Notes: generated by a model from the sequence alone, not told the origin. Counted from the first letter of the stretch, positions 38,952 to 58,643 are shown. The stretch: 64,000 nucleotides of DNA from Myxococcota bacterium (GCA_039028615.1 JBCCHT010000039.1:1-64000); one strand, 5' to 3'. Program-made: numbers and translations.

Positions 38952-39930
38952 ACCGACTTCCACCGTCGGCCACGGTAACACCCCATCGCGCGCACGACCA
39001 TGGTGCAGACATCGACGACGATGCGAGTCACAGTGTCGAGTTGGTCCTCGCTCGAACTCGACCTACCGCGATGTGGGACCTTCGTGGGCGTCGCGCCCGC
39101 GAACCATGAGTCGATTGCGAAGCAGTCGATTCGACCTACACCGGGACCGTCGATGAACTCGGCCGCCGAACAACCAGGCGTGTCGTGGGTCGAGTTTCCA
39201 CGAGGCACTACGTGGCCGGATCGTTGGGGATGCTCGAGTGTCCGACTCGCACTCCCACCTCGCCCGCGTTGTCGGTGCAGTCTTCGATTTATGCCCATGA
39301 ACGACGTTCAGCTCACCTTTGCGCGCTCATGATGTCGTACTCGCTGCGCTGGACTTCGTCGCCGTTTTCGTCGACGACGTGCTGCGGATCTCCGTCCGAC
39401 GAGACCGTCGGTATGCAGGCTCTGCACATCGGCCGCGACGCTCTCTCCGATTTCGATCGCACGCATGTTCGGTCGTCGTACTCAGATACGCATGCCAGGT
39501 TCTCGCCCTTTGTCCTACTGCGGCTGCAAGATCCTGACACCAAGCATCGGCGCCCTCGATGCCACCCATCCCGCCCACGCTCGACGCTAGTGACAACGAA
39601 CGACGGCGGTGGAAAGAGGATCGAGGATACGCAACCCCATCGTCGGTCACCGCTCGGTGTCAGTTTCGCGCACGCGCGATCACGGCGGCGGTTCGGGGGG
39701 TGAACGCTCGTCCCGTTGTGGCACTCGCCACCACCCGCCGCCGGGTCCGACAACCCCTCTGAATGTTTGAATACTTGATCGTATCCGCCCCCCGGGCGAT
39801 CCTAACGTTCAGGCCTCGGCCAAGGAGGGCCAAAGCCCCACGGAAGCGGCGCAAAGGGGCAGGAAACGGTCAATGTTCAGCGTTGAGCGCAAGGGTGCCC
39901 GGTGCCCAGGGTTCGACCACGGAGTCGGTG

Positions 39931-41883
39931 GTGGCTGAGCAGACGTGGGTGCAGCGGCTACGCGGGGGGCAGGGCGTCGGCATGCTCTTGCTGCTGTCGT
40001 TGCTGTTCGTGGCCGCGTTGCACTCGACTTCGATTCCCGACGCGATCGACGCGTCGCTGCAGTCGGCCTACTACCGCGCGGGCATTCCCTCGAGCACCGA
40101 GCAGCGCGTGCTGCTGGTCGAGGCCGACGACGAGACGACCCAACACTGGGGCTCGCCGCCGTGGACGGAGCAACGACGCCGAGCCCTGCTCGACCGCATC
40201 GCCCAGGGTCAGCCCGCGGCGCTGGTGGTCGTGGATGGTGCACGGATGTTCCCGGTCCGTTCGGACACCGCCGACGCCCCCCCGCCCGACGATGGCCTCC
40301 CGTCGTCGCTGGTGTACGTGGAGCTGTCCACCCACATCGACCCCGGCTCGAACCAGGTCGACTCGCTGAGCGACGGGGATGTACGACTCCGTAGGTTGGA
40401 CCCCGTGCTCGAGGTGCTCGAGCACGACGAGCCCCGCGCCGAGCAGCTGCCGATCCACTATCTATGGCCGCGCTCGCGACTGCCGACCATGTCGTTCAAG
40501 CGCATCGAGCAGGGCGACGTGCCGCCGTCGATCTTCGAGGACAAGGTCGTGGTCGTGGGCCTGACCAGCCCCGATCATCGCGACGCGCTGGCGACCCCGA
40601 TCGGCGCCCTGACCTCGCCCGAGATCATCAGCCACACCTTCGCCATGGTCGCCGACGGCCGCCGCTTCCACGAGCCGAGCTGGTTGGTACGCGTGGGCGG
40701 CCTGCTGCTCGTGCTCGCTGCGACCATGCTCGCCATGCGGGGCACCACGCCATCGCAGGCGGTGGTGCGCGTGGCCGCGCTGCTCGCCGTGCTGCTGGCG
40801 ATCGACCTGGTGCTCTTCTCCCGCGGGCTGATGCGCTGGGGCGTGAGCACCGAGCTCATCGTGGTGGTCTCGATCCTGATGGGGCACTGGTATCGCAGCC
40901 AGCAGGACAGCGCGGCGCTGGTGCAGACGGTCTCCAGCAAGATCTCCGAGCAGCTCGAGTCCGAGACCGTCGGCGAGCCCGCCCCCGAGGATGGCTTCTG
41001 GCAGGACATCGCCGAGACGGCCAGCGCCTACCTCGAGCTCGACTTCACCGGGGCGCTCATCGAGCTCCCCGAGGGCCAGTGGCACCTGCAGACGCGGGCC
41101 TTCATGAACATGGACGAGGAGGGCATCGCCGAGCGGCGCCGCGACGTCCGGCGTCCGCCCTACCGCGCCGCGTTCCTCACCCACAAGCCGCACCGCTGCG
41201 AGCGGCCCTTCATGGCCGACGAGTCTCGCTACACCCTGGCCGTGCCGCTGGCCTTCGAGGGTCGACTCTACGGCATGTGGATGGTCGGCCTCGACAAACA
41301 GACCGAGCTCGAGCGCTCCGACAAGACCTTGCTCGAGCAGCTCGGCCACGAGCTGGGCCGCAGCATCGCGGCCGCCCGGCGGGGCAAGCCCTTCGGCGAG
41401 TCCCTGCCGCTCAGCTCCGGCGACATGGCTCACCGCTTCGCGCAGCTCATCCACGGGGTCGAGGCCCTCGGCCAGGACAAGCGCCGCGTCGTCGACACCT
41501 TCGACGCCCTGCCCATGGGGCTGTTGGTCGCGAACATCTGGGGCCACATCGTGCAGAGCAACGCCGCGCTGCGCTCCGAGCTGGCCGACCAGTTCCCCGA
41601 CGGCATCCCCAACAACGACCTGCGTGCCGTGCTGTCGCGCGTCACGGGCACCTCGCTCGAGGGGGTGCACGGGATCATGCGGACGGTGATCCGCACGGGC
41701 AATACCGTCCGGCTGCGCTCGGCCGAGGCCAACGCGCGCGACTCGAGCTTCCTGCTCATGCCCATGCAGACGGAGGGCTCGACCGGTGCCCATGCGTCCA
41801 GCGAGCCCGCGACGCACCTGGTGCTGATGATCGTGCCCGAAGACATGGGCCCCACGGTGGACATGCTCGTCCGAATCGCCTGA
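39931..41883 (+). CDS. CHASE2-domain membrane sensor with GAF and PAS-like domains, no recognisable output domain
   Basis: LLVEADDET..WG.PPW, FEDKVVVVG and TPIG CHASE2 motifs; 3 TMs; LAVPLAFEGRLYG GAF; FDALPMGLLV PAS; start uncertain. Confidence 0.8.
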   Translation: MAEQTWVQRLRGGQGVGMLLLLSLLFVAALHSTSIPDAIDASLQSAYYRAGIPSSTEQRVLLVEADDETTQHWGSPPWTEQRRRALLDRIAQGQPAALVVVDGARMFPVRSDTADAPPPDDGLPSSLVYVELSTHIDPGSNQVDSLSDGDVRLRRLDPVLEVLEHDEPRAEQLPIHYLWPRSRLPTMSFKRIEQGDVPPSIFEDKVVVVGLTSPDHRDALATPIGALTSPEIISHTFAMVADGRRFHEPSWLVRVGGLLLVLAATMLAMRGTTPSQAVVRVAALLAVLLAIDLVLFSRGLMRWGVSTELIVVVSILMGHWYRSQQDSAALVQTVSSKISEQLESETVGEPAPEDGFWQDIAETASAYLELDFTGALIELPEGQWHLQTRAFMNMDEEGIAERRRDVRRPPYRAAFLTHKPHRCERPFMADESRYTLAVPLAFEGRLYGMWMVGLDKQTELERSDKTLLEQLGHELGRSIAAARRGKPFGESLPLSSGDMAHRFAQLIHGVEALGQDKRRVVDTFDALPMGLLVANIWGHIVQSNAALRSELADQFPDGIPNNDLRAVLSRVTGTSLEGVHGIMRTVIRTGNTVRLRSAEANARDSSFLLMPMQTEGSTGAHASSEPATHLVLMIVPEDMGPTVDMLVRIA

Positions 41884-41899: not shown

Positions 41900-44800
41900 A
41901 TGGAATCGAGCCCCGAGCTGCTGTTCGAGATACCGCGCGGGCTCGAGCAATCGATCCTCCTGGCGGTGCTGATCGGCTTTTTGGTCACGCTCTTTTTGGT
42001 CGAGAGCTTCGGCTGGGTGTTCGTGGGCGTGGTCGTGCCCGGCTACCTCGCCTCGGTGCTCGTCATCCAGCCGCCCGCCGCCCTGGCCGTGGTGCTCGAC
42101 GCGAGCCTGACCTACATCGTGGCCAAGATGCTCGAGATGATACTGGGTCGAGGCGGGGCCAGTAGCGAGTTCTTCGGGCGAGAACGGTTCTTCTTGTTGG
42201 TGCTCGTCTCGGTCTTCGTGCGCCAGCATACCCAGACGTGGTTGTGGCCCTTGGCGCTGGAGACGGTCGACCCCATGGTCGACATCCCCGTCGACTTCGC
42301 CCGCAGCTTCAGCAGCATCGGCATCGTGCTGGTCCCGCTGATGGCCAACATCATGTGGAAGCTCGATCTGCGGCGCGGCATGTGGCACCTGGCGCTGACC
42401 AGCCTGGTGACCTACGCCCTGCTCGCGTGGTGGCTGCTGCCCGAGACGACCCTTTCGTATAGCGCCCTCGAGCTGAGCTACGAGGACACCGCCATCGACT
42501 TTCTGGGCAACGCCAAGGCCTACATCATCTTCCTGACCACGGCCTATGTGGCCTCGCAGCTGAACCTCTACTACGGCTGGGACTTCAACGGGATCTTGGT
42601 GCCCGCCCTGCTGGGCCTGCTGTGGTTTCATCCCGCCAAGCTCGCGACCACCTTCGGCGAGGCGATGGTCGTGTACATGGTCACCGTTCGCATGCCGCGG
42701 GCGCCGATCTTGCGCTCGATCAACCTCGAGGGTCCGCGTCGGCTCGCGCTGGTATTCACCACCAGCGTCACCCTCAAGTGGCTCATCGGCTGGATCCTCG
42801 GCGACAGCCTGCCCACCCTGAAGATCACCGACGCCTATGGCTTCGGGTACCTGCTGCCCTCCCTGCTCGTCATCAAGATGATGCAGCGCAAGTCGATGCG
42901 AGCGGTGCTGCTGCCCACCGCGGTGGCCTCGTGCATGTGCTTCGTCATCGGCAACCTGATCGGCTTCGCCCTGAGCTTTGCCGACCCCGCGCCCAAGGGC
43001 CCCGACGAAGCCGCCCAGCTGCAGACCAACGACAGCACGCGGCTATTGAGCAGCGCGGCGGGAGTGGGCGCGCTGGGGCACCTGCATGCGCTCGAGCGCG
43101 CGACGACCTTCGCCGACCACGGGCAGAACGTGGCCTACCGCCGGGTGTGGGAGACCGCCTCGCGGTGGCTCGACACGCCCACGCCTCACAACCAGGCGGC
43201 GGTCCTCGAAGCCCTGGGGCCCACCAAGCTCGAGCTGGTCGCGGTGGGGGAGCACGAGGGGCGGCCCGCCTACGCGCTGGTCGAGCGCGACCTGGGGCCG
43301 CGGCAGGGCTGGGACACCGCCTTGCTCGTGCCCGGAGCGCCCGGCCCGGTGATCGCGGTGCCCCGACCCGTGGCCGAGGCGCCCATCGCCGAGTCCGCCT
43401 CGGTGCTGTGTCGGCGCATGCGCTGCCGGGCCCTGCTGATCGCGGGCGTCGACGTCGAGCGCGACCCGATGATGCGCATGAGCACGTCGTCCTTCGACAT
43501 CGCTCGCGGCGCGCTGCGGGACACGCCCATGATGATCCTGCGCTCGGACGACGCCATGGGCCGCAAGCCCATCCTGCACATCGGCGCCGAGCTTCCGTCG
43601 TCCGTCGACCTGCGTCGCGCCTGGCCGACCGAGGTGGGCCTCGAGTGGTCCGATCCCCCCGTCGAGTTCGCCGCGCGTCCTCCCGCGCAGGGCGGCACGC
43701 TGCGGATCCACCCCTTGGACATCGAGGCGATGCTGGCCTCCAGCTCGCCGTCGCTGGTCAATGCCTCGACCCCGCCGCCGTGGGTCATGCTTCGCGACCG
43801 CGATCCGCTGCTGCGCACGCTCCCGCCCGGGCAGACCCCGTCCAAGCGAGAGGCTCGATACCTCGAGCTGGAAGTGGTGGCCCCGTTGGTGGAGATCGCC
43901 GCGGGTCGTCGGCCGACCTCGGAGCTCGAGCGGCTGTCGTGGGCGGCCGAGCGCCTGGGCATGGAGCTGTGGCGGATCGATGACTGCGGCGCGGGTCGAC
44001 CCTGTCTCGGGCTCATCGATCCGCTGGGCGACGATGGCATGGGCTGGGGCTCGCTGCTGGTGCGCTGGGGGGAGACCCGGGAGATCGGCATCGAGCTGCT
44101 GCGCCCGGGCATGGCCTTCGGTACGCAACAGCTGGGGCTCGAGCTGTGGCAGCAGGCCAATGCCCGCGCCATCTATGTCGGCCCCAGCAACGCGCACGAG
44201 GGGCAGAACCCGCTGGCCCTGGGCAACATCCAGGCCCCGCTGATGCCCTTTCATCAGGCGCTCGATCGCTCGCTCGGCGACGACGTCACGCGACCGCTCT
44301 TGGTGCAGGTGCTGGGCTTCGGCGTCGAGCGGCAGCTCGATACGCCCATGGTCGTGGGCCTCGGCCGGCCCGTGCTCGACGAGGGCCAACAGCCGCTCAA
44401 GCTGCGCTGGCTGCTCGAGCAGGGGCCTCTGCAATGGGTCGAGCGCCCGCTGTTCAGCGACGGCTCCCCGCTGCTGCACGCGCTGTCCGGCCTGGGTAGC
44501 CCCGCGGTGGAGTACTCGCTGGAGCTGGGCCAGGCCGATGTCGCCTTGCTGTGGTTTTCGCCGCAGGTGCGTGGCCGCTACGTTCGCCGGGCCCAGGGCG
44601 GAGAGCAGCGACGCTCGCGAGCGCTGGGGCTCGAGTACCAAGACAACTCCGAGCTGGAGCGACTGGCTCCCGAAGGGATCACCAACGAGACCACGGCCCC
44701 CCCCGCCCCGATGATCGAGGAGATCGACGAGCTGCTGCGCCTGGCCACCAGCTATCGGCTCTCCCACGACATCCACGCGCTGCGGCGGATCCAAAACCGC

Positions 44801-45070
44801 GCCCGGGGCCTGACCACCGAAGAGGTGACCGTGCGCGTGTCGGTGGGCGGCGGGACGATCAGCAAGCTGCCCATGGTGTGGGTCGAGGCCACCGGTCCGC
44901 AGTGGGGCCTGCGCGGCATGGTGCTGCTGGAGTCGGCCGTCGACCGTCGCACCACCCTCGTCGCCACCGAGGCCGACCTTCGCGAGCAGATCGGCCTGGC
45001 GCTGTTCCGCCGTGACGGGATCGTCGTCGTACGCAGCGGGCCGCCGTCGGGAGGTCCCGATGCTCCGTGA
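41900..45070 (+). CDS. Poly-gamma-glutamate biosynthesis PgsC/CapC-like protein (tandem CapC domains) with a ~700-aa soluble extension
   Basis: GVVVPGYLA, FFGRERF and SIGIVLVPLMAN match CapC motifs; second copy GILVPALLG, EGPRR, GFGYLLPSLL. Confidence 0.8.
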   Translation: MESSPELLFEIPRGLEQSILLAVLIGFLVTLFLVESFGWVFVGVVVPGYLASVLVIQPPAALAVVLDASLTYIVAKMLEMILGRGGASSEFFGRERFFLLVLVSVFVRQHTQTWLWPLALETVDPMVDIPVDFARSFSSIGIVLVPLMANIMWKLDLRRGMWHLALTSLVTYALLAWWLLPETTLSYSALELSYEDTAIDFLGNAKAYIIFLTTAYVASQLNLYYGWDFNGILVPALLGLLWFHPAKLATTFGEAMVVYMVTVRMPRAPILRSINLEGPRRLALVFTTSVTLKWLIGWILGDSLPTLKITDAYGFGYLLPSLLVIKMMQRKSMRAVLLPTAVASCMCFVIGNLIGFALSFADPAPKGPDEAAQLQTNDSTRLLSSAAGVGALGHLHALERATTFADHGQNVAYRRVWETASRWLDTPTPHNQAAVLEALGPTKLELVAVGEHEGRPAYALVERDLGPRQGWDTALLVPGAPGPVIAVPRPVAEAPIAESASVLCRRMRCRALLIAGVDVERDPMMRMSTSSFDIARGALRDTPMMILRSDDAMGRKPILHIGAELPSSVDLRRAWPTEVGLEWSDPPVEFAARPPAQGGTLRIHPLDIEAMLASSSPSLVNASTPPPWVMLRDRDPLLRTLPPGQTPSKREARYLELEVVAPLVEIAAGRRPTSELERLSWAAERLGMELWRIDDCGAGRPCLGLIDPLGDDGMGWGSLLVRWGETREIGIELLRPGMAFGTQQLGLELWQQANARAIYVGPSNAHEGQNPLALGNIQAPLMPFHQALDRSLGDDVTRPLLVQVLGFGVERQLDTPMVVGLGRPVLDEGQQPLKLRWLLEQGPLQWVERPLFSDGSPLLHALSGLGSPAVEYSLELGQADVALLWFSPQVRGRYVRRAQGGEQRRSRALGLEYQDNSELERLAPEGITNETTAPPAPMIEEIDELLRLATSYRLSHDIHALRRIQNRARGLTTEEVTVRVSVGGGTISKLPMVWVEATGPQWGLRGMVLLESAVDRRTTLVATEADLREQIGLALFRRDGIVVVRSGPPSGGPDAP

Positions 45071-47678
45071 CGTGCTCTCGGCCGTGGTCCTGGTCGGCAC
45101 GCTGTGGGCCCTGTGGCAGCTGGGCCACGTTCGCGACGCGCTGTCGCAAGCCACCGACACCCCCATGCAGCGCAAGATCCAGGGGGCGGACCGCGTGGTG
45201 CACTACCGCTTCGACCAGGACGGCGGCCCCTCGTTTCACCTCGATGGCGACGAGGTCGAGCTGCGCCTGGTCACCCACTTGTTCCTCGAGCCCGGCCGGC
45301 TCTACTCCGCGTTCGCGACCTACGACTATGGCCTGCGCCTGCGCATCGACGACCCCGAGGGCAACGTGCTGTGGGAGCGCGACATCTACACCTCCACCCG
45401 CCAGAGCAAGGACGAGTGGTCCGACGGGCTGTGGATGCAGGAGAACGCCTTCGGGCTCGACCCGGGCATGGAGATCACCGACGACCGGGTGCACCTCATC
45501 ACCCTGCCGCGCGACATCCCCTGGGGCTCCACCTTCCACGCCCGGCTCGAGGCGCCCGCGGCCGAGTACGGGGTCATCCGGGCCTACGAGCGCTCGCTCG
45601 ACTCGTCGCTGGGCGTGCTGCTGAGCTATTTCGGGCCCGCGCCCGATCAGGAGTCGCGGCTCATCGGGCGCCTGACCTACCTGCCCTGGGATGCACTCTC
45701 GACCGAGCAACGGCTCACCCGGCTGCGCTTGCGCTGGAATCGAATGTCGGCGCTGGGCGAGCTGGGCACGGACTACGAAGTCGAGACCGTCTTCTACACC
45801 GGCTTTCGCATGCCGCCGCCGCAGCTACCTCCGCGCCCACCGACCGAGCTGGTCGACGACCGAGCCACCGCGTTCACGGCCTGGGGACCAGGTGAGCTGC
45901 GCCTGGCGATCGAGGCCGACTGCCCGGAGCACCCCGGCCTCGGTCTCGACCGCCCGGCGATCGAGCTTCTGCACCTCGACGCGATGGGCGTGGTGGATGG
46001 TCGGCACGTCGATCCCTGCAAGGGACAGAGCCACGAGGTGTGGCTACCCCCGGGGCCGCACACCATGCACGTGCGAGGCAAGGCCCTGCCGCCGACCACC
46101 ATCGAAGCCTGGTACGACGACCACACCCAAGATCCGCCCGAGCTGCCCGGGCTCGAGCTGGGGCACCCCTTCCGCCCCACCATCACCCGCTCGCCGCGGG
46201 TCCGCCTGCACACGGGGTCGGTGCCCGCCAGCTACGCCCTGGTCGAGCCCGAGGACCTCGAGTCGGCCATGATTCGCCTGCGAGCGCGGCTGCCCGTGCC
46301 TTCGCGCTCGGGGCCCGAGGCACAGCGCCCCGCCACCATCGGCTACACCTTCATCGATCGACACGGTGAGCCGCTCGAGCGCGGCGAGTGGCGGGTCGAG
46401 CCCTCGCCCGAGCTCGCCGAGTACGAGTCGGTCGTCAGCGCCTCGGATGCCGAGCGCACCTGGTGGGTCAGCCCGCCCAAGACTACCCGCTTCATCGCCC
46501 CCGAAGGCACGCGGCGGCTCGAGCTCGATGCACAGGGGGACGCTATTGTGTCCGTGTATGCGTACTGGTCGGGCGCCACCGAAAAGCCCCGCCCCCACCC
46601 GCCCTACGACGAGGCGATGCTGGTCAACACGCAGTGGCGACGCGTGCCCATCGACTACCAGTGGTGGTTTCCGCTGTCGCCCCACAACGTGCACATCCTC
46701 CAGCGCCACAACCAGACGGTGGACCTGCACGGGCCGATTCGGCTCGAGCTCGAGGGGGCCTTCGAACGCGAGTCGCCTCGCCTCGCCCGCAAGCCCAAGG
46801 CCTCGGACATCCAAGAGCCCGGCGGCGGCACCTCGCCCTGGGTCAGCCTGTCGCCCTATACGCCCAACGAGCGGCGCACCGTGCTGCTGAAGACCTCGGC
46901 CGACTCGCCGTGGGCTCGGTATGCACGCTGGCGACCGGGCGCCGCGACCCTGAGCGTCGACGACGACTGGGGTGCGGCCGCCGTGTACCTGGTCGAAGGC
47001 GATCCCGAGCTCGCGCTGGGCCAGGTGCTCACCGCGACCGTCGACGGCGTCCCGGTCGAACACACCATCTTGAGCACCCGCGGGGTCTGGAAGCTGCCCG
47101 GTCTGGGTCGCGGCGAGCACGACGTCGAGCTCGGACCCCTGCCTCCTGGTGTGCGCGTGTACCTCGACCGACCGGGGCTCGATCCACGCCGCGGCAGCAC
47201 CGACGTCTTCCGCGTGATCACCCTGTATCGGCTCGAGGACGACCCCATGGGCCTGAAGGTCGACAAGACGGGCGACGACGGCGAGTACATCAACGCGCTG
47301 ATGATCCGCTGCGACGATCGAGAGCCGAGCCAGCTGAGCGTGCTGCTCGACAACGGCTCGCCGCGACGGCGCCGCGGCGTGCCCATCCAGCGGGTCACCC
47401 GAGCCGTGCGCGAGCGGGAGCTGCCCGCCCGCGGCCCGTCGACCGAGCTGGTGTTCTTCGACCGCCCGCAAGCGCGCTGCGAGGCGCTGGGGCGGGTGCC
47501 CATTCCGCTCGGCGCCGACCTGGCCCTCGGCCCTCATCGCGTCACGCTGCGCATGAAGGACGGCCCCGGGGTCTGGGTTCGGTTCTTCCGACGGGGGGTC
47601 GACGACTCACAGGACCTGCGCGCATTCGAGTGGACCGAACGACTACTCGACCTCGGCGACACCGCGGGGGCACCATGA
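45060..47678 (+). CDS. Hypothetical membrane-anchored multi-beta-sandwich protein (operon member)
   Basis: MLRDVLSAVVLVGTLWALWQL N-terminal TM; overlaps both neighbours; 872 aa. Confidence 0.8.
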   Translation: MLRDVLSAVVLVGTLWALWQLGHVRDALSQATDTPMQRKIQGADRVVHYRFDQDGGPSFHLDGDEVELRLVTHLFLEPGRLYSAFATYDYGLRLRIDDPEGNVLWERDIYTSTRQSKDEWSDGLWMQENAFGLDPGMEITDDRVHLITLPRDIPWGSTFHARLEAPAAEYGVIRAYERSLDSSLGVLLSYFGPAPDQESRLIGRLTYLPWDALSTEQRLTRLRLRWNRMSALGELGTDYEVETVFYTGFRMPPPQLPPRPPTELVDDRATAFTAWGPGELRLAIEADCPEHPGLGLDRPAIELLHLDAMGVVDGRHVDPCKGQSHEVWLPPGPHTMHVRGKALPPTTIEAWYDDHTQDPPELPGLELGHPFRPTITRSPRVRLHTGSVPASYALVEPEDLESAMIRLRARLPVPSRSGPEAQRPATIGYTFIDRHGEPLERGEWRVEPSPELAEYESVVSASDAERTWWVSPPKTTRFIAPEGTRRLELDAQGDAIVSVYAYWSGATEKPRPHPPYDEAMLVNTQWRRVPIDYQWWFPLSPHNVHILQRHNQTVDLHGPIRLELEGAFERESPRLARKPKASDIQEPGGGTSPWVSLSPYTPNERRTVLLKTSADSPWARYARWRPGAATLSVDDDWGAAAVYLVEGDPELALGQVLTATVDGVPVEHTILSTRGVWKLPGLGRGEHDVELGPLPPGVRVYLDRPGLDPRRGSTDVFRVITLYRLEDDPMGLKVDKTGDDGEYINALMIRCDDREPSQLSVLLDNGSPRRRRGVPIQRVTRAVRERELPARGPSTELVFFDRPQARCEALGRVPIPLGADLALGPHRVTLRMKDGPGVWVRFFRRGVDDSQDLRAFEWTERLLDLGDTAGAP

Positions 47679-48697
47679 ACGAGATGCCGCGCGCGCGAAA
47701 CCTGCTGTGGGTCACCACCACGGCGAGCTGCTTGCTCGCGGGGGGTCCCGACGAGGCTTCGCAGCGCCAGCGCGGCTCCTCGCACGCCACCGATCCCGGC
47801 GAGCGCCTGGGTCCCGAGCGAGACATGAGCGCGCGACAGGCCCGGGCCGCGCTGTGGCCCAACCTGCGAGGCCAGGGCTACGAGGCCGCGTCGACCGAGC
47901 ACGTCGAGGCCACCCAGCAGCTGCTCGCCGCGACCATGACCTACGCCACCGGGAGCACCGACGGCCAGGCGCTGCCCCAGCTCGCGCTCGCGGCCGGGCT
48001 GCTGCTGCAGCGCTGGAAGATCGACGAGCACCACTACCTGGCGATCCTCGAGGGCCCCGACGGCTCCGGTCGCACGGGGGCCTTCCTGCTGCGCCTGGGC
48101 CCCCCGCCCGCCGATGGGCGAGAACGACTGCTGCAAGCGCCCCACGCCTTCTTCGACATGGGTACGGGCCGGGTGACGCTCGACGTGCTGCTCGCTCGCC
48201 CCGCCGACTTCCGGGGGCTAGCCACCAACACGCTGCAGCGCTACGTGCAGCCCGACGGCACCAAGAAAAAGTCCGCCCGCAACCCGGCCGACGTCTGCCA
48301 CAACCACCGGCATCCCTTCGTGGCCGCCACCGTGGGCATGGCCGAGGCGAGTGATGCCCTCGAGGTCATTCAGCTGCACGGGTTCGGGGACGACCGCACC
48401 ATCCCCGAGCTGCCCGAGGCCTGGGCCATCGTCAGCGCGGGCTCGCTCGACCCCGGCTGGCCGCGCGTCACCGCGGTCGCCACCGCGCTCGAGCGAGACT
48501 TCGGCGTCACCATTGCCCGCTACCCCGAGGACGTCGAGCTGCTCGGGGGCACCACCAACGTCATCGGACAGCGCGTGCGCTCCATCCCGGACGCGACCTT
48601 CCTGCACCTCGAGCTGTCCTCGAACTTCCGCACCAAGCTCCGCCAAAAGCCCGAGTGGTCACGACGGTTCGCCGCCGCGCTGGTCTCTGCTCCGTGA
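47675..48697 (+). CDS. Putative secreted Zn-dependent hydrolase resembling poly-gamma-glutamate hydrolase / N-formylglutamate amidohydrolase fold
   Basis: ATGA overlap; LLQAPHAFFDMGT, IQLHGF, LLGGTTNVIG and FLHLELSSNFR occur in PghP-like order. Confidence 0.6.
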   Translation: MNEMPRARNLLWVTTTASCLLAGGPDEASQRQRGSSHATDPGERLGPERDMSARQARAALWPNLRGQGYEAASTEHVEATQQLLAATMTYATGSTDGQALPQLALAAGLLLQRWKIDEHHYLAILEGPDGSGRTGAFLLRLGPPPADGRERLLQAPHAFFDMGTGRVTLDVLLARPADFRGLATNTLQRYVQPDGTKKKSARNPADVCHNHRHPFVAATVGMAEASDALEVIQLHGFGDDRTIPELPEAWAIVSAGSLDPGWPRVTAVATALERDFGVTIARYPEDVELLGGTTNVIGQRVRSIPDATFLHLELSSNFRTKLRQKPEWSRRFAAALVSAP

Positions 48698-51600
48698 TGG
48701 CCCGGTGGCTGCTGACCCTGCTGCTGTTGTCCATGGTGGGGCTGTGCTCGCGCCCCGCCGCCGCCGTTCCCCCTCCCCTGGCCACCGATCGGGCGGAGTG
48801 GACCTGGAGCCCCACACCCGTGCACTACGGGGTCGATCCCGCCGACGTACGAGCGAGCGCGCCCTTCGTGCCCCGAGGAACACCCCGCGTCGAGGGCAAG
48901 GTCGTCATCGAGCCCGGTCGCGCGGTGGTGGTGTGGATGAGCGCCCTGTCCACGGTTCGCGTGCGAAAGACCCGGCCGGAGTCGAGGGGCACGCTGAGCT
49001 TCTCGCGGGTCGAGCCCAGCGCGGGCCTGGCCACGGCGCGGGTCGATGAAGACGGGATCGCGGTCGCCCCCGGGACGTGGCTGCTTCGGCACCCGGTCGG
49101 CTGGGGCGCGCCGTGGCTCGTGCAGAGCGATCGACGAGTGGAGATCGTGGTGGAGCAGGCCGTCGCTCGTCGGGGGCAGCGGATCTGGGAGCACGTGCAC
49201 GACAACGTCTTGCAGTGGGTGCAGCTGCGCGGCTCCATGCCCCACCTGCCTTCGACGGCGGGCTCCGAGCGCTATGTCCGACGGCGCCTGGCCGATCGCG
49301 AGGTCGCGCGGGAGATCCAGGACCTGTCGGGGGGCAACGCCGAGGTGCGCCAGGCCCTGATCGCATGGCGCATGATTCGAGCCGCCGATGAACTCGACCT
49401 GCTGCGCCCCCTGGGCCAGGTCGAGGAGATCGTGCCCAAGGCCGCGCCGACGGTGGAGCTGCCCCACCTCCGCGACGACCCCACCTCCGCCTCGGCCGAC
49501 CTGCACTTCGTTCGCGTGGAGCCGGAGCAGCCGTGGCACTTCGGGGTGCGTGGTCCGGGGGTGCTGCGGCTGGGCCTGCGAGCGTTGCTGCCCCCCGATG
49601 GCCCGCGCTCGCGACCGCTGTCCGCGGTGGTGAAGACCCGAGGCGACGACGGTCGCGAGCACGTGGTGAGGCGCCTGGACGTGCTCGCATCGGTCGCGCG
49701 AGTCCGTGACGTCGGCGATCCACAGGCGCCCATCCCCACGCTGGTCGACGCCCGCACCGAAGCCGGAGAGCTCGCGTCGCTGGAGCACACGCTGACGGTG
49801 CCCCTGCGGCCGGGCAAGCACGAATACTGGGTGGAAATCGCGGGCAGCCCGGTGGCCCTGCGCGCCCGGCTGGGCCGCGTGGTTCCGCAGGCGCACGGTC
49901 GAGACTCGACACAATGGCGGGCCCGCACCCGTCGTCGCGCCCTCGCCCGACTCGACGATCAGCGCACGGTGGCCGCCCACGTGACGCGCCTTTTGTTGGC
50001 CGATCCCTGGGTCGCGCCGTGGCGCCTGCCGCTGCCCCTGCGCAAGACCCTGGGCCGCGATGCGCCGCGCGTCCGCGTGTTCATGGAGCTTCACTCGCTG
50101 CGGCGGCGAGACATCGATGCCGTCAGCCGCATGGCGCGAGGTCGCCAGGTGAATGCATGGCTGCCCTTGGCCCCCGAGGCCGACGCCCTCGACATCGAGC
50201 TGCGCATGCAGATGTTCGAGCTGCGCATGGCCGCCGGGCGACACCTGCGAGCGGTGGAGATGCTGCGCAGCCACGCGGGGGCCCTCAACGGCGACGAGCT
50301 GCCCGCCCTGGTCGACGCGGTGCAGGAGCCCGGACGCGCGTGGCCGCTGATGGGTGCGCTCGATGCCGTGGCCGCCCGCGCCCCGCTGGCCAGCCGACTG
50401 CGGGCCGCCCATGCGCGCCTGTGGTCGTGGACGAGCTGGGCGCGGCTGCACCCCACCACCGACGTTCCCGCGTGGCGCTGGGTCGAGCCACCGACCGCCC
50501 GCTCGCCGACCGCCGACTCGCCGCCCGGGGCCCTGTGGTCCATGCCCCTGCGGACCGCGGTGAAGCTCGTCGCCCCCGCGCACCCCTTCGAGCGCGATCG
50601 GACCCCCGTGCTGCGGATCTCCGTGCACGCCGACGCCCCCGTGAAAGGTCCGCTGAAGCTTCAGGTCGGCGACGACGTATTCACCACGCCCATGCTCGGC
50701 CTCTCGGAGGTGTTCGAGGTCGCGGTGCCCGTGGGGACTCACTTGGTCTGGCTCGATGCCCCCGAAGGCGTGCACGCGCTGAGCAACTTGCACCCTGCCC
50801 CCGGACAGACGCACGCCAAAGGGCCGAGCCCGCTGCGGACCACGATGTGGCCGGCCCACCGCGACGGTCGGGCGACCCAGTTCGACCTCGGTGCGCTGCC
50901 CCGCGACACGCTGGTCCAGGTGGGACTGCGGGTCATCGATCCTCCCTCGTCGCCGGCCGAGCCCGTCACCGCGTGGGTCTGCTTCGACGACGGCCAGCGG
51001 CGTCGGGTCGTCGTCGCGCCCGGGTCTCGCCCCACCGAGCTCATCACCATGCCGGGCGCGCCGACCGTGTCCGATCGCGTGCACGTGGTGGTACCGGCCT
51101 CGCGTCGCGCGACGCGGGTGTGGGTCGAATCCGAGACGCCGCTGGCGGTGGCGGCCAAGGTGCGGCGCTGGGATCCGCCACCCGCCCAGGCCTTCGCAGA
51201 GACCACCACCGTGGCCACCCGAGGCCCGGGCGCTCGACTCACGCCGCAAACACGCCACGCCGCCACGAACCGACGCCGCGTCCGACGAGGTGAGCCCTAC
51301 GAGCGACTGCGGCAATCGACGCGGCGCATCGCAGCCCAGCCCAAGTCCATTCGCGCCCGGGTGGAGCATGCCCATCGCCTGCTCGACGTCGGCGATCGCC
51401 AGCGCGCCCAGTGGGAGCTGCTCGACGTGCTCGAGGCCAACCCGCTGCGCCCCGACGATCCACGCGTGCCCCTGGTGCAGGCCCTTCAGGCGCGCATCGA
51501 TGCGTTCTTGACCGACGACTACATTCGCCAGCCGAACACCCCGTATCCGCAGCCGTTGCTGCTACGGCCGGCCATGGCTGCGCTGGGACCCGACCACCCC

Positions 51601-53757
51601 TCGCGCTCGCAGGTCGCCGAGGCCACCGCCGCCGCGCACGAGGGACGGCTGCGCGAGGCGTTCGAGGGTCACGCCGACGCCTATGCGCACAGCGAGGCCC
51701 TGGGCCCGGGCTATGCCGCCGCGCTCGCCTACGCCGATGCACTGTGGGGAACGCCGGGTCAGCCCCTCGATCCCTCGTGGGTCCCCCTGCGCTCGCTGGC
51801 CTACGGCGTCACCAGCCGAGTGCGCGCACAGATCGACACGCCGCGCCTCCGTCGGCTGCACAACGAGCTGGCCACCCCCGGTCAGTGGCAGCCCCTCCAG
51901 CTCGCCGAGCGAAGCGCGGGCACCCAGGATCGAGGGCGTCGCGCCAACACCCGAGCGCTCACCGACACCGAGCGGCTGTGGTGGGCCCTGCTCGCTCCGC
52001 CCTGGGCCGAAGGCGAGGGGCAGCTGCTGCGCTCGGGGGCGCGGAGCATCATCAAGCTCGAGCTGCCCGACCCCCACGCGATCGAGCTGGAGGTGTTCTG
52101 CGACGATCGCCGCAGCGATGCGGACGAGCTGTCGGTCGAGCTGCGCACTGAAGACTCGACCACGCCCATGCAGGACGACACGCTGGTGCTGCCTCGCCGC
52201 CGCGCACGACGACATCGGCTCCCGGCTCGTCGCGGCTCGGTGCGCATCGAGTTGCGGCTCCCGCCGGGCGCTCCCGAGCGACGCTGTGCGGTGCGCTGGC
52301 AGCTGGTGCGCTCGGCCACCGAGGCCCTCGTCTCCGAGCGACCCCTGCGGTGGCTGCGAGCCGAGCCGGGGCGACCGGTGGAGATGATCGTGCTGGGCCC
52401 CACCGCCTTGCGCCTGAACCTCGAGCCGCGCCGTGAAGACACGTCCACCACCGCCACCGTGCAGATCGCCGACCTGGCGGGCAAGGACCCGCAATTCGTG
52501 TCGCTCCCCGTCGAGGCGGTCGGCGACGGCGGCTCGGACCCCGTCACTCTGCTCATACCGCAGGCGGGGGCGCAGCGGCTGACGATCAACACCGACGACG
52601 AAGGCGTGCTCGCCCGGGTGGCCGTGCGTCGCTCGAGCGACGGCAGCGACGAGGCCGTCGCCGAGCAGATCGCCGCCCTCGCTCCCACCACCCACGGCTC
52701 GGACACCGCCGCCGTTTCGGCCGCCCTCGACCTCGACCCACCGGGTCCCTACTGGCCCTCGGGCGCCGATGCACGCCCCACCGAGCGCATCGCCGACGCT
52801 CCCTCCGACGCCACCGGGCGGCTCGGCTCCTTCGAGGCCGAGCTCGGCTTCAGCCGCACCGACATCGCCGAGGCCGACGACCCCCGCCCCCGCAGTCGAT
52901 TGCGCGGCAGCGTGCTGTGGCGGCGCGAGCTGTACCCCGATCACATCTGGCTCAAGCTGGCCACCCACGGTCAGGGGCGCGACGGGGCCGGGGGCGCGGG
53001 AGGAGCGGCCGCCACCGCCTACGCCCAGCTCGGCTCGCGGCGCCTGCGGGGATGGGCCTCGGTCGCCTCGTGGGCGGAGCGCTACGGCGACATCCCGGCG
53101 TCGAGCGTCCGCGCCACGCTGCATCTCGATCGACCGCTGGGCATCACCCCGTCGCTCGCCGTCATCCCCTACTTCCGCAGCTCGTATCGCCACCAATCCC
53201 TCGACGACGCCCAGTTCGACATCGACATCGACCCCTCGCACGCCCAGGTGTTCTCGGCCTACGTCGAAGACCACCCGCTGGTGCTCACCCCCGGGGCGCG
53301 GCTGCGCTGGAATCCGTATCGCGACCTGCAGGTCTCGGGTGAGGTCAGCGCCACGCCCAACTCCGTGCCCGACTCGCTCGACCACGTCGACGGCGCGGTG
53401 AACCTCCAGGGCATCATCGACACCCGGCTGCCCCTGCTGGTGCGCTACGGCGGCGCCTACCGGGCCTCGCTGCGCTTCGAGGACGACGACCGCGTCCAGA
53501 CCTTCGTTCGCCACAGCCCCAGCCTCAATGCGGGCGTGACCTGGATCTTCCGCTCTGTCGGTCGCCTGAACCTCGATCTCCGCGATACCGTCTACCTGTC
53601 GCGCCCCTTTGCCCCCCGCAATGGTGTGCACGTGGTGCTGTCCTTCGAGCTGACCTTGGACCGAGGCGTCCGCGATACCTCCCCCATGGAGCTGCTGTTC
53701 CGCCCCGCCTACCGCTACCGATGGTGGCAAGCCCCGCCGCGGAGGTCGGCGCGGTGA
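48697..53757 (+). CDS. Large secreted protein with beta-sandwich and helical/TPR-like regions and probable C-terminal outer-membrane beta-barrel
   Basis: Signal peptide MARWLLTLLLLSMVGL...AAA; TGATG overlap; alternating amphipathic strands in the last ~300 aa. Confidence 0.7.
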   Translation: MARWLLTLLLLSMVGLCSRPAAAVPPPLATDRAEWTWSPTPVHYGVDPADVRASAPFVPRGTPRVEGKVVIEPGRAVVVWMSALSTVRVRKTRPESRGTLSFSRVEPSAGLATARVDEDGIAVAPGTWLLRHPVGWGAPWLVQSDRRVEIVVEQAVARRGQRIWEHVHDNVLQWVQLRGSMPHLPSTAGSERYVRRRLADREVAREIQDLSGGNAEVRQALIAWRMIRAADELDLLRPLGQVEEIVPKAAPTVELPHLRDDPTSASADLHFVRVEPEQPWHFGVRGPGVLRLGLRALLPPDGPRSRPLSAVVKTRGDDGREHVVRRLDVLASVARVRDVGDPQAPIPTLVDARTEAGELASLEHTLTVPLRPGKHEYWVEIAGSPVALRARLGRVVPQAHGRDSTQWRARTRRRALARLDDQRTVAAHVTRLLLADPWVAPWRLPLPLRKTLGRDAPRVRVFMELHSLRRRDIDAVSRMARGRQVNAWLPLAPEADALDIELRMQMFELRMAAGRHLRAVEMLRSHAGALNGDELPALVDAVQEPGRAWPLMGALDAVAARAPLASRLRAAHARLWSWTSWARLHPTTDVPAWRWVEPPTARSPTADSPPGALWSMPLRTAVKLVAPAHPFERDRTPVLRISVHADAPVKGPLKLQVGDDVFTTPMLGLSEVFEVAVPVGTHLVWLDAPEGVHALSNLHPAPGQTHAKGPSPLRTTMWPAHRDGRATQFDLGALPRDTLVQVGLRVIDPPSSPAEPVTAWVCFDDGQRRRVVVAPGSRPTELITMPGAPTVSDRVHVVVPASRRATRVWVESETPLAVAAKVRRWDPPPAQAFAETTTVATRGPGARLTPQTRHAATNRRRVRRGEPYERLRQSTRRIAAQPKSIRARVEHAHRLLDVGDRQRAQWELLDVLEANPLRPDDPRVPLVQALQARIDAFLTDDYIRQPNTPYPQPLLLRPAMAALGPDHPSRSQVAEATAAAHEGRLREAFEGHADAYAHSEALGPGYAAALAYADALWGTPGQPLDPSWVPLRSLAYGVTSRVRAQIDTPRLRRLHNELATPGQWQPLQLAERSAGTQDRGRRANTRALTDTERLWWALLAPPWAEGEGQLLRSGARSIIKLELPDPHAIELEVFCDDRRSDADELSVELRTEDSTTPMQDDTLVLPRRRARRHRLPARRGSVRIELRLPPGAPERRCAVRWQLVRSATEALVSERPLRWLRAEPGRPVEMIVLGPTALRLNLEPRREDTSTTATVQIADLAGKDPQFVSLPVEAVGDGGSDPVTLLIPQAGAQRLTINTDDEGVLARVAVRRSSDGSDEAVAEQIAALAPTTHGSDTAAVSAALDLDPPGPYWPSGADARPTERIADAPSDATGRLGSFEAELGFSRTDIAEADDPRPRSRLRGSVLWRRELYPDHIWLKLATHGQGRDGAGGAGGAAATAYAQLGSRRLRGWASVASWAERYGDIPASSVRATLHLDRPLGITPSLAVIPYFRSSYRHQSLDDAQFDIDIDPSHAQVFSAYVEDHPLVLTPGARLRWNPYRDLQVSGEVSATPNSVPDSLDHVDGAVNLQGIIDTRLPLLVRYGGAYRASLRFEDDDRVQTFVRHSPSLNAGVTWIFRSVGRLNLDLRDTVYLSRPFAPRNGVHVVLSFELTLDRGVRDTSPMELLFRPAYRYRWWQAPPRRSAR

Positions 53758-56700
53758 AGATCGGCCCGCTGAAGCTCGGCGTGCCCTCGCTGGCGCGGGT
53801 GCGGCACCACGACGATCCGAGCTCGCCCGCCTACGTGGGACGAGACAGCCATCGCCGCGCGGTCATCGACCTCATCGCGCGCCACATGTCTCCGCTGCAG
53901 GCCAAGGTGCGGCGTCGGGTGCTGGACGAGCTGTCGCGGCGCATCGTCGACCGCGAGGGCGAGATCGATCTGTTCTTCCAGCTCGACGAATCGGAGCGCC
54001 TGGCCGCGACCCTGCTGCACGCCCGCCATGTGATCCCCGTGCTCGAGGCCGAAGAGGAGCGCTTCGTGGTCGAGTTTCGCCGGCTGGTGCGAGCCCACGA
54101 CGCCCTCGATTCCCAGGCCGAGCAGCGGCGCTTCTTGGCCGATCACCTGCAACGTACCGCGTCGAGCCGCGGGCAGGCCCGGGCCGACCGTGCCGCCCTG
54201 CGTCGCAACCTCAACCTCGAGGCGCTCAAGGAACGGCACGATGGCGATCGGCATCGGGTGTTGGTGCAGGTCGAGGTCTCGCTCGACTTCATGGCCGGGG
54301 CCCTGGTCACGCTGGGCCCCGACGCGCCCGCCCCGACTGAATCCAAGGCCTCGGCGCTGGCGCTGTTGGGTGACTCCGACGTGCTCGAGTTCCTGGTGAC
54401 CTACGCCCGGACCCAAGCGCGCTGGCAGACCCGCTGGGCCGCCGCCCGAGCGCTGGAGGCCTACGTCTGCACGGGCATCACGCTCACGGACGCGCAGATC
54501 GAGGGCCTGCGCGGGCGCATCGCCGACAAGAACGAGCACCCGTGGGTGGTCTCGGTGTTGGTGAGCACGCTGTGGACGACCCGGCCGCAGCTCGCTCGTA
54601 CGATCACCGAGGAGCGCCTACGCACGCCTCTGGAGCACCCGCTGGACTTTCTGGTACGGCGGCTGCTGCTCGACCAGACCCATCGCGACGGGCCCTGGGC
54701 GCTGGGCGTCATCGAGGCCCTGCTGCACCGAGGAGACCCCGCCCAGCACGTACGCCTGGGCATCAACCGGGTACTGCGGCGTCTGCTCGACGAGCACCCC
54801 GAGGCGCTCGATCTCATCGTCTCGCAAGTCGGCATCTTGCCCGCGAGCGCGCCCGAGCCCGAGCCCGCCCCGCGGCGCAAGAGGAAGAAGGCCAAAGCCG
54901 AGCCCGCGCCCGCGCCGAAGCTCGAGCTGCCGTCGGAGACCGTCAGCACCGAGGACGTCGCATCCTCCAACGACGCCAATTACGACTCCGCCGATCGCAA
55001 GAAGAAGCAACGCCGCAAGCGACGGCGAAAGAAGAAGGACAACAAAGAAAAGAAGAAACGGAAGAAGACGGAGAAGCCCGCTCCGCCACAACAGCCCGCG
55101 CAGGACGAGCCGACCGAGGCCGTCGAGGAGCCCGCGAAGGACGAGCCGACGCCGGCCGAGCCCGAGGCACCGACCGAAGACTCCGGGCCCAGCGAGCATG
55201 CCGTCGTGCCCGACGTGGGCGATGCCGCGGCACGGGTTCGAGCCGTGGCGGGGCGAGCATTGGTCGTCACCCTGGGCGAGCGCCTCGCCTGCCCCGAAGC
55301 GGGCCCGCGGGGCAAACAGAGCCTCGCGTACCTCCACACCTGGCTACGGCGTGAGCGCGACGAGCTACCCCTGCTGGTCACCTTCGAGGCCCTCCGTCGC
55401 GTGCTCGAAGACATCCACGAGGACCACGACGGTCGCGAGGCGCTACGGATCCTCGCCCCCGTGCTCGCCGAGCTGTCCCGTGACGGCGCTGCGTCGCCCG
55501 CCATCCACGAAGACGCTGCCGCCACCCTCGAGACCCTCGATCGCGTGCTCAGCCCACCGCGCCGGGCCCTGGTCGCCCGGCTGCGCTCCGCCTTGTCGCA
55601 GACCTCGGTGCCCGGCTCGTGCCGCGTGCCCCTGACCGAGGACAACGAGCGCGCCGACGTGGGCCGAGCCCTGGCCGAGATCACCCGCGATGACTGGGGC
55701 GTCTCTGCGTCGCTGTCACCTCGCCGGGCACGCCTGCGCCGTGGCGACCGCTTCACCACCAAGCTGTGGCGAGTGCTGCACGAGATCCGCAACCCCGCGC
55801 CCAACAAGCGCCAGGGCTTTCGCCACACCGTCGGCCGCGTGCTCACGGGCGACCTGCGAGCCCACAGCGGACAGCTGCACGAGGTCACCCCCACCGTGGT
55901 CCCCGGCGAGCGCGTGCACATCCGGGGCGAGGGCGGCTGGGGTCGACACGTGCCCTCGGCCGACGACGTGACCACCGTGCCCCTGCTTCGGCCGCGCCCG
56001 GTGGAGCTTTACAGCAGCTTCGGCGTCACTCGACTGCGCGCCACCGGATCGCTCGCCAAGCGCCTGTGGTCGCGCGCGCGGCTGACCTTCCGCTACGCCG
56101 AGGTGGCCGCCCAGCGCAGCACCAGCCTCGACTCCGACGAGCCCGAGGAGTCGCGCCGCTACCTGACGATGCTGCGCGATCGCTACGGCATCGAGGTGGA
56201 GATCGAGCCCGCGCCCCCCTGCGGCGAGCACCCGCGGGCCCTGCCCGAGCGCATCACCGCCCTGCTGCCCGGCGAACCGGAGCCCCCCGCCGACGCGTCG
56301 TCCAAGCCGTCGACGAAGGTCGCCGCGCTCGCGCTGGCCCCCGACGCGCTCACCCCCGGCGTGCTGCCCCGCCTCGACGAGTGGCTCGACACCCACGTCC
56401 ACTACTTCCTGTCGATGCAGGCCAACCAACAGGCCTCGCTCGCCGCGTTCTTCCTCGGGGCCTTCGCGCTGTTCTTCGGCGACTCGTTCCGCCGCCGCCA
56501 CTCCATCGATCGCGCCCGCAAGAAGATCCCCCTGTGCATCGGCGGCTGGGGCACCCGCGGCAAGTCGGGCACCGAGCGGATCAAGGCGGGCCTGTTCCAC
56601 GGCCTCGGCTACCAGGTCTTCTCCAAGACGACCGGCTGCGAGGCGATGATGATCCACTCCGTACCCGAGGGCCCTCCCGCCGAGGTCTTCGTGTTCCGCC

Positions 56701-58643
56701 CCTACGGCAAGGCCACCATCTGGGAGCAGCGCAACCTGCTGGAGCTCGGCGCCGCCCTCGAGGCCGACGTGTTCCTGTGGGAGTGCATGGCGCTCAACCC
56801 CAAGTATGTCGAGATCATCCAGCACAAGTGGATGCGCGACGACCTGTCCACGCTGACCAACGCCTATCCCGATCACGAGGACATCCAGGGCCCGGCCGGC
56901 ATGGACGTGGCCAACACCATCTCGCGCTTCATCCCCGATGACGGGATCATCCTGACCAGCGAGATCAACTTCCTGCCCCTGTTCCGCGAGGTCTGCCGCG
57001 AGCGAGACAGCGAGCTGGTGGCCATCGGGCCTCACGAGGGCGACCTCATCGCACCCGAGCTGCTCGACCTGTTCCCCTACCAGGAGCACCCCCGCAACAT
57101 CGCGCTGGTGGCTCAGATGGCGGAGCAGCTCGACGTCGACCACGACCTGGCCATCGTCACCATGGCCCAGCACGTGGTCGCCGACCTCGGCGTGCTCAAG
57201 AGCTATCCGCCCGTGCGGGTCTGCGGGCGCGTGCTCAAGTTCATCAACGGCTGCTCCGCCAACGAGCGCGCCGGGTTCTTGGGCAACTGGGAGCGCACGG
57301 GCTGCGCTGCGCTGGCCGAGAGCGAAGACCCCGAGCAGCTGGTGATCACCGTGGTCAACAACCGGGACGACCGCATCAGCCGCAGCGAGGTCTTCGGTCG
57401 CATCCTGGTCAACGACTGCGTGGTCGATCGTCACGTGCTCATCGGCACCAACCTACGCGGGCTGCTCTCGTACCTGCGCGGGAGCATGGCGATCTTCCTG
57501 CAAAACATTCAGCTCGTGCGTGCGGCCGACCTCGAGGACCCCGAGGGACGGGAGCGGGCGCTCGGGCGCCTGGCGGCGTTGATGCAGCGGCTGCGGATCT
57601 CTCCGCTGTCTGCCAATGCCCTGCTCGCCCGCCTCCGCACCTATGCAGCCGGTTGCGGCCTCGAGCTGCGCGACCCCGAGCCCGCCCGCAAGGTCCTCGA
57701 GCAAGCCCTGGCCAGCGACGGCGGCCTCGAGCTGGCCAAGCTCCGCAAGGACTTCGAGCAAGACGCCAAGCTCCGCGCCGCCCTCGATGCCGGCCTGAGC
57801 GAGCCCACCGAGGCCTCCACCCAGACGCCGCCAGAGGTCCTGATCCCCTGCGAACGCAAGGAACTCGAGGTGCACTTCGCCCGCCAGCTCGCGCGCGCGG
57901 TGATCCATGCTCGCCTGCGACGACAGCTCGAGGCCCTGTTCGACAACAAGTCGACGTCCGAGCTGGGGGCCTACGAGGATCGGGTCCGCGAGACCTATCG
58001 GGTGATGTTCGATGACATGTTGGTGGTCGTCGAAGATCCCAAGACCAAAGGTGACGCAATCGTGCAAGCGTGTGCACGGTGTGTACCGCCCGGGACCCAT
58101 GTACGCATCATGGGTACCCAGAACATCAAGGGTACCGGTCTCGACTTCGTGTATCGATGGTTGGCCGTCGATGCCGTGGTGGCGGAGCTGAAGATCCTGC
58201 AAGGGCCGGAAGACGACGGGCGACTCGGGGCGCTCGAACGACTGCAGGCCTTTGCCGATCACGGGGTGATGGATCTCGGCCTCCTCCATCGATACCTGCG
58301 CGAGAACGAGCCTCGGGGGGCCGCCGAGCGAGCGCCCTTCGATCGCCTCAAATCCAAGGTAGAGCCCGCCTACAAGAAGAAACGGGCTCCTTTCGAAGCG
58401 GCGACGGGCCCCGATGCACCGGGCGGCAAGAAGAAGAAGACGTGGGTCGAGTCGGCCGCGAGCTGGATCGAGGGATGGCTCGATTTCCTCGACGGTGCCC
58501 GTCGGTTCCACGGATCGGCCGCGATCATGAAGGACCTGGTGCACGGCCGTGTCTCCCACCCCCGCGCCGCCGTGCTCATGCGCGAAATCTACGCGAGAGA
58601 AAAGGGAGGTTGGTTGCTGGCACGCTTTTCCAACAAGGGGTGA
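53754..58643 (+). CDS. Giant PgsB/CapB-like ATP-dependent amide ligase (Mur-ligase superfamily) with a ~900-aa N-terminal extension
   Basis: GTRGKS P-loop (56550), [35 protein letters not shown] and [10 protein letters not shown] match CapB; GTGA overlap. Confidence 0.88.

Follow-up and report, generated by a model that had tools for sequence, protein, structure and literature searches.

A predicted zinc hydrolase of an unnamed PghP-related family, encoded within a CapC/PgsB gene cluster of a Myxococcota bacterium

We analysed a stretch of 64,000 nucleotides from a Myxococcota bacterium (GCA_039028615.1, JBCCHT010000039.1:1-64000; hereafter the window), in which a gene cluster resembling the synthases of poly-gamma-glutamate, or gamma-PGA, contains a gene for a predicted Zn hydrolase. 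The protein is very probably an active metallohydrolase of the clan that contains PghP and the N-formylglutamate amidohydrolases (FGases), and it is a distant relative of the phage poly-gamma-glutamate hydrolases. By analogy with AlgL, we estimate at roughly 60% the probability that it is an exported Zn gamma-glutamyl endopeptidase, which trims, releases or clears the polymer of the cluster in the periplasm. The solid part of this reading consists of the open reading frame, the conservation of residues and of gene order, and the fact that the gene co-occurs with a long type of PgsB; the doubt lies in the substrate and the site of action. The gene and its motifs are as follows.

47675..48697, plus strand: hydrolase gene, 340 amino acids (aa); predicted Zn hydrolase with a Zn-carboxypeptidase-like fold, from an unnamed sister family of PghP and FGase
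47675..47731, plus strand: possible export signal of the lipoprotein type, with Cys19 as its last residue; in the window protein itself the signal is weak
48134..48166, plus strand: QAPHAFFDMGT, with the predicted Zn ligands His157 and Asp161 (HxxxD; HxxxxE in PghP) and Thr164
48227..48301, plus strand: family-specific segment N185..R189..D206xxH209, which stands where PghP has HxTS
48371..48385, plus strand: QLHGF, with the predicted third Zn ligand His235
48542..48568, plus strand: LGGTTNVIG, with the conserved Asn295
48599..48631, plus strand: FLHLELSSNFR, with the predicted catalytic Glu313 and Arg319 (Glu+6, like Glu165/Arg171 of PghL; available text of PMC6506827)

The ATG at 47675 overlaps the stop codon of the upstream gene (ATGA), and the stop codon of the hydrolase gene overlaps the ATG of the next gene (TGATG). 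The GC contents at the three codon positions are 0.72/0.52/0.91 in the hydrolase frame and 0.88/0.73/0.51 in its in-frame upstream extension from 46388. The codon-position GC marks the ATG at 47675 as the start, and together with the overlaps at both ends it fixes the limits of the gene. A reading of 769 aa from the GTG at 46388 was rejected because of its overlap with the upstream gene and its non-coding codon bias. A preliminary description of this DNA had named four motifs in the order of PghP-type gamma-PGA hydrolases in an unannotated gene; all four were found in that order in the 340-aa frame, at 48134, 48371, 48542 and 48599. The gene is indeed unannotated, since neither the protein nor its 43-row profile matched anything in sequence searches of Pfam, NCBIfam and the PDB, and its closest named homologue is a hypothetical protein of Paraliomyxa miuraensis (53% identity). 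The motif order was rejected as sufficient evidence and is by itself weak, because 46 of the 28,601 stop-free stretches in the source genome fit a loose ordered version of the pattern. It is the conservation of the motifs across homologues, together with the predicted fold, that raises them above chance.

A single homologue search gave 43 proteins, the window protein included, and the profile of their alignment matched 3,199 clusters (50% identity) at E <= 0.001; the hydrolase thus represents a family of ~3,200 clusters without a Pfam entry. Conservation was counted in an alignment of 245 rows (184 proteins and 61 domains from fetched loci), from which all matches that covered at most 150 profile positions, as well as those weaker than 1e-10, had been removed. 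This removal took out the dead domain copies described below, and the counts lean high because the rows were chosen by profile. His157 and His235 are present in 245/245 rows each and Gly236 in 244/245. Position 161 is acidic in every row (Asp in 224, Glu in 21), with the acid at His+4 and not at +5. Thr164 is conserved in 235/245 rows, Arg189 in 243/245, Asp206 in 243/244, His209 in 217/244, Asn295 in 243/245, Glu313 in 238/240 and Arg319 in 240/240. The His-Asp-His ligand set with a catalytic Glu that had been proposed for the protein is supported by the global profile alignment, where His157, Asp161, His235 and Glu313 align with the ligands and the catalytic Glu of PghP and PghL. In the predicted active site, His157, Asp161 and His235 would bind Zn, Glu313 would act as the general base, and Arg319 would hold the substrate carboxylate like Arg171 of PghL. 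The R189..D206xxH209 segment likely serves substrate recognition.

The predicted model of the hydrolase (predicted local distance difference test, pLDDT, 88.9; predicted TM score, pTM, 0.86) shares its fold with the PF05908 family (Zn-carboxypeptidase-like alpha/beta) and with the PF05013 FGases. A Foldseek search with this model placed PghP (3a9l) first, the PM1 hydrolase (21dc) second and PghL (5onj) fourth. The expectation of a Zn-carboxypeptidase-like fold was thus supported, as PghP/PghL and FGase structures head the fold searches. PghP and PghL (PF05908; 3a9l, 5onj, 21dc) are among the closest known systems, with the predicted fold, the HG motif and the Glu+6 Arg in common. The Gly after the second His is present in 12/13 PghP-type proteins, 1/21 FGases and 244/245 members of the hydrolase family, and Arg at Glu+6 in 13/13 PghP-type proteins and 0/17 scored FGases, as against 240/240 in the hydrolase family. 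The PghP side of this comparison consists of 13 sequences from the same phylum (effective number of sequences, Neff, ~3), because a viral-contig scan for PghP relatives confirmed 0 of 7 candidates.

Several results weigh against a gamma-glutamyl endopeptidase of the PghP kind. In a wide fold search over 48,161 chains, the top four were 2odf, 2q7s, 5onj and 3a9l, so that by fold the FGase-like entries score equal to or above PghP and PghL. The substrate motif of PghL (His77/Thr79/Ser80), which is described together with its Zn-ligand residues, the catalytic Glu165 and Arg171 in the available text of PMC6506827, corresponds to an HxTS motif that occurs in 13/13 PghP-type proteins, whereas an HxTS-like motif was found in 0/244 rows of the hydrolase family. 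Membership of PF05908 was rejected, as the protein gave no match up to E 1 (gathering score 22 bits), and a match was found for 1 of the 43 homologues (E 0.0011). The hydrolase family therefore differs from PghP and PghL in three respects: the PF05908 match, HxTS and the HxxxxE ligand are theirs. The parallel with PghP stands for the Glu/Arg pair, HG and the His positions, and does not extend to the PF05908 match, HxTS or the second ligand, which is mostly Asp, at +4, where PghP has Glu at +5. At most, the hydrolase would work like PghP from outside PF05908. Because of the missing PF05908 match, the FGase-level fold scores and the missing HxTS, it lends moderate support to gamma-PGA, and this support is not independent, contrary to what had been claimed; the main support comes from the PgsB and CapC neighbours. 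Apart from these two points, family membership and independence, the earlier interpretation was largely right.

The same results favour, as the foremost alternative, an active Zn amidohydrolase that is more FGase-like than PghP-like and cuts another bond, such as one in an N-acyl-glutamate cap, in the linkage to a primer or anchor, or in a non-gamma-PGA polyamide. The top two ranks of 2odf and 2q7s, the lack of HxTS, the second ligand, which is Asp in 224/245 rows where PghP has Glu, and a PgsB match below its cut-off all fit this alternative, as does the spacing of R189..D206xxH209, which on our own reading of the sequences resembles the SR..D.NR segment of FGases. However, FGases (PF05013; 2q7s, 2odf) have the same fold but a profile match to the hydrolase family of 3-7%, whereas PghP-type proteins reach 75-80% (E 2.5e-5 to 1.7e-6). 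The fetched FGases have Tyr at Glu+6 (15/17 scored) and Ser or Thr after the second His (19/21). Their HS/HT and a Glu+3 Arg (21 fetched FGases) are not the pattern of the hydrolase family, whose HG and Glu+6 Arg are PghP-type traits and which mostly has export signals. We regard this alternative as unlikely, although it survives better than those considered below. Membership of PF05013 was also rejected, with no match for the protein or any of the 43 members (gathering score 28.9 bits); the matches of the source genome to PF05013 sit on contigs C13 and C46.

The contig also carries, 7 kb outside the window, a canonical PghP-type gene (L104:811-2187; G000:C39 ~70748-72124), which is the sole gene listed in the genome-wide PF05908 search (C39:71438). 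Its product exceeds the PF05908 cut-off, has PHGGSIE, HVTS, HG and the Glu+6 Arg, and carries a long N-terminal extension. The source genome thus holds both families.

The hydrolase is likely exported, judging from the N-termini of its family. A hydrophobic N-terminal window was found in 103/135 near-full-length members, as compared with 25/135 internal control segments, and 58 have a lipobox-like motif. Cys occupies the position of Cys19 in 87 of the 97 rows having a residue there. The proposal of a secreted hydrolase therefore agrees with the family at large, but the window protein itself falls under the cut-off of 1.8 with an N-terminal hydrophobicity of 1.46, although it keeps the conserved Cys19.

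As had been described, the gene lies inside a predicted synthase operon, a CapC/PgsB cluster with a gene for a predicted outer-membrane barrel. The genes run in the order CHASE2, CapC fusion, 872-aa gene, hydrolase, 14-strand barrel protein and PgsB fusion.

39763..41883 (the start may be 39928), plus strand: membrane sensor with CHASE2 and GAF-like parts, at the head of the cluster; PF05226 E 4.5e-13, position conserved
41900..45070, plus strand: CapC/PgsC fusion, 1056 aa, with two CapC stretches and a long C-terminal part; PF14102 E 7.1e-36, 2 stretches
43091..43555, plus strand: dead hydrolase-domain copy 1 in the CapC fusion, a partial match (hhalign probability 98.6%)
43811..44590, plus strand: dead hydrolase-domain copy 2 in the CapC fusion (hhalign probability 99.7%)
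45060..47678, plus strand: 872-aa protein of no known family in Pfam/NCBIfam searches, with a hydrophobic N-terminus
48697..53757, plus strand: 1686-aa exported protein with a C-terminal 14-strand outer-membrane beta-barrel (~52828-53652) in the predicted model
53721..58643 (the start may be GTG 53754), plus strand: PgsB/CapB-like ligase, 1640 aa, with its core at ~56496-57479 and a long N-terminal part; TIGR04012 E 2.9e-59

The CapC fusion exceeds the PF14102 cut-off and scores 53.5 bits with TIGR04011, below the cut-off of 96.45. The PgsB fusion reaches 200.7 bits with TIGR04012 (cut-off 222.7), and a G[TS]RGKS motif, presumably of the Mur-type/P-loop kind, is present in 34/36 relatives; a PDB sequence search with the PgsB core gave no match. 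A low-complexity insert rich in Lys/Arg and Glu/Pro lies in its N-terminal part (54860-55180, ~residues 380-490). The barrel model has 14 long strands (pLDDT 82.5) and is closest to CymA/OmpG, with porins at the top of the fold search, and the barrel alignment contains 13 alternating 9-mers as compared with 1 in a control alignment. With the barrel profile, a PDB sequence search gave no match, and Pfam searches on its alignment gave weak matches only. No capA gene is present in the cluster; the only PF09587 match of the genome is on another contig (G000:C45:48701-49426).

The hydrolase family was found in 57 of 301 genomes of the phylum. A PgsB match was found in 99, of which 35 have the long, close type. 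The hydrolase is present in 34/35 of these long-PgsB genomes, as compared with 6/64 with ordinary PgsB only and 17/202 without a PgsB match; the long-PgsB genome that lacks it (G232) is 91% complete. No statistical test was applied to this co-occurrence, since related genomes are not independent. From the hit list of the phylum, 60 regions were fetched, leaving out G092, G276, G222, G179 and weak second hits, and G292 and G048 were added later. The CapC fusion and the 872-aa gene directly precede the hydrolase at 25 of the 40 best loci; of the remainder, 12 are solo and 3 show a rearranged or partial arrangement, whereas the weaker loci are solo in 20/20 cases. In named genomes, this upstream pair is present at 16/18 loci, and 12 also have PgsB within 10 kb; the carriers include Aromatoleum, Methylovulum, Crenothrix, Pseudoalteromonas, Marinobacter (in a flank without PgsB), Sulfurovum and Pirellulaceae. 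The six-gene cluster thus recurs in several Gram-negative phyla. Among close kin the gene is patchy, in 6/41 genomes and in 1/5 other genomes of the genus. That the hydrolase gene always lies inside the cluster was rejected, because three genomes (G115, G042 and G048) have a cluster without an intact hydrolase and an intact gene elsewhere, which fits an enzyme that is needed but free-standing.

A gamma-PGA hydrolase acting outside the cell, in dispersal or in feeding on its own or foreign polymer, would fit the family members in 17/202 genomes without a PgsB match and the occurrence of the gene away from its cluster; for non-producers, it has been proposed that pghP serves in feeding (available text of PMC4497714). 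A FastTree of 80 domains, rooted at the midpoint, likewise sets apart a clade of 23 sequences, all of them stand-alone. However, the window hydrolase falls in the cluster-rich part of this tree (45 cluster and 12 solo sequences), its gene overlaps both neighbours at the stop and start codons and in some relatives is fused to that for the upstream protein, and the separate canonical PghP-type gene could serve feeding. An extracellular role in place of periplasmic housekeeping is therefore improbable, more so than the cutting of another bond.

In a separate solo clade (L070, L072-L091), most members have extra conserved Cys (HRC and CG for HRY and GG), and several copies per genome are frequent. 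No recurring family was found among 62 neighbour proteins of stand-alone homologues, and a plasmid search with P0038 gave one weak match. At L035, a stand-alone member is followed immediately downstream by a PF09587 PGA_cap (CapA-domain) gene (L035:6633-10786).

For the periplasmic gamma-glutamyl endopeptidase that we favour, the two dead copies of the same domain suggest a division of labour. Copy 1 has His in 3/43 and 5/43 rows at the two His positions. In copy 2 these are replaced by Arg (21/43 and 30/43) and Glu by Trp (34/43), whereas the last Arg is kept (32/43). Glutamate would be polymerised at the inner membrane by the PgsB and CapC fusions, and the dead CapC copies, with Arg replacing the Zn-binding His, would bind the polyanion and direct it onward uncut. 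Passage across the periplasm and the outer membrane would fall to the 872-aa protein and the barrel protein, and the single live copy would trim, release or clear chains stalled in the periplasm, in the manner of AlgL with alginate. Alternatively, the live copy could itself be a non-catalytic or transfer-type conduit subunit that takes the place of CapD by binding the polymer or attaching it to the envelope. This would fit the service of the same domain on CapC without catalytic residues and the fusion of the hydrolase to the 872-aa protein in one open frame (L043, L049, L053, L054, L059 and P0120), but is very improbable: the predicted metal ligands and Glu are near-invariant, unlike those of the dead copies, some genomes have the gene at a distance from the cluster, and CapD belongs to the GGT family, which has a different fold (available text of PMC4497714).

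BcsZ is a polymer-cutting enzyme of synthase-dependent secretion. Like the AlgL and BcsZ systems, the cluster would encode a polymer-cutting enzyme together with a synthase and an outer-membrane barrel, and AlgL clears periplasmic alginate without joining the secretion complex (available text of PMC9734138). In contrast, AlgL and BcsZ are unrelated to the hydrolase in fold and chemistry, and a polyamide is the predicted polymer here. The cluster further differs from these systems in its barrel model of 14 strands nearest to CymA/OmpG; as to a periplasmic TPR scaffold, a single TPR_20 match was found (E 0.042, under the cut-off). PgsB- and PgsC-like cores are common to the cluster, to the pgsBCAE-pgdS and capBCADE operons of Bacillus and to the diderm three-gene capB-capC-pgsF cassette, and in Bacillus a hydrolase gene adjoins the synthase (PgdS, CapD; available text of PMC4497714). 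The cluster differs from these in the 1640-aa PgsB, the 1056-aa CapC fusion and the lack of capA, and the published PGA operons, as far as the available texts describe them, contain no counterpart of the CHASE2 gene, the 872-aa gene, the barrel or the dead hydrolase copies. A literature search, with subscription papers mostly outside its coverage, gave no paper on the hydrolase family or the cluster among the matches listed. Organisms with the cluster may be listed as PgsB/PgsC holders in the S2 Table of PMC4497714 and the S1 Dataset of PMC5542703, and diderm PGA clusters are shown in Fig. S12 of bioRxiv 10.1101/2025.11.11.687785.

With slightly less than even odds, the cluster is an undescribed, multi-phylum secretion machine of two-membrane bacteria for a polypeptide polymer, which would be for polyamides what the alginate, cellulose and Pel systems are for polysaccharides. 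The Zn-peptidase domain would be triplicated in it: the two CapC copies with His replaced by Arg would form a cationic guide for the nascent polyanion, and the third, active copy would size or clear the polymer before its exit through the 14-strand barrel. The question becomes testable through the candidate parts that the cluster supplies and through its presence in species with names (Aromatoleum evansii, Methylovulum miyakonense and Pseudoalteromonas rubra). Having both live and dead versions of a domain, the operon also lends itself to a natural comparison between binding and cutting. If the hydrolase cuts gamma-PGA with a substrate site unlike that of PghP, its stereo- or length preference may differ, which is relevant to the sizing of an industrial biopolymer.

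Rearranged or split clusters were observed in three genomes (L044 and L157 in G031, L061 in G062, L155-L156 in G081), with the halves facing apart, PgsB inverted, or the hydrolase and barrel genes apart from the rest. A genome of the same genus (G305) has two degenerate family matches outside any cluster (L160, L161). The neighbouring genes of the cluster in the window look myxobacterial (MYXO-CTERM). Upstream, on the opposite strand, lies a DUF1552 / DUF1585-1595 / beta-propeller trio (33947-38963, minus strand). Directly after the PgsB gene, 58720-60843 encodes an acidic repeat protein that is rich in Cys and bears a MYXO-CTERM sorting signal. At 60899-62005 lies a short gyrB-like gene of 369 aa with only the ATPase and DNA_gyraseB domains.

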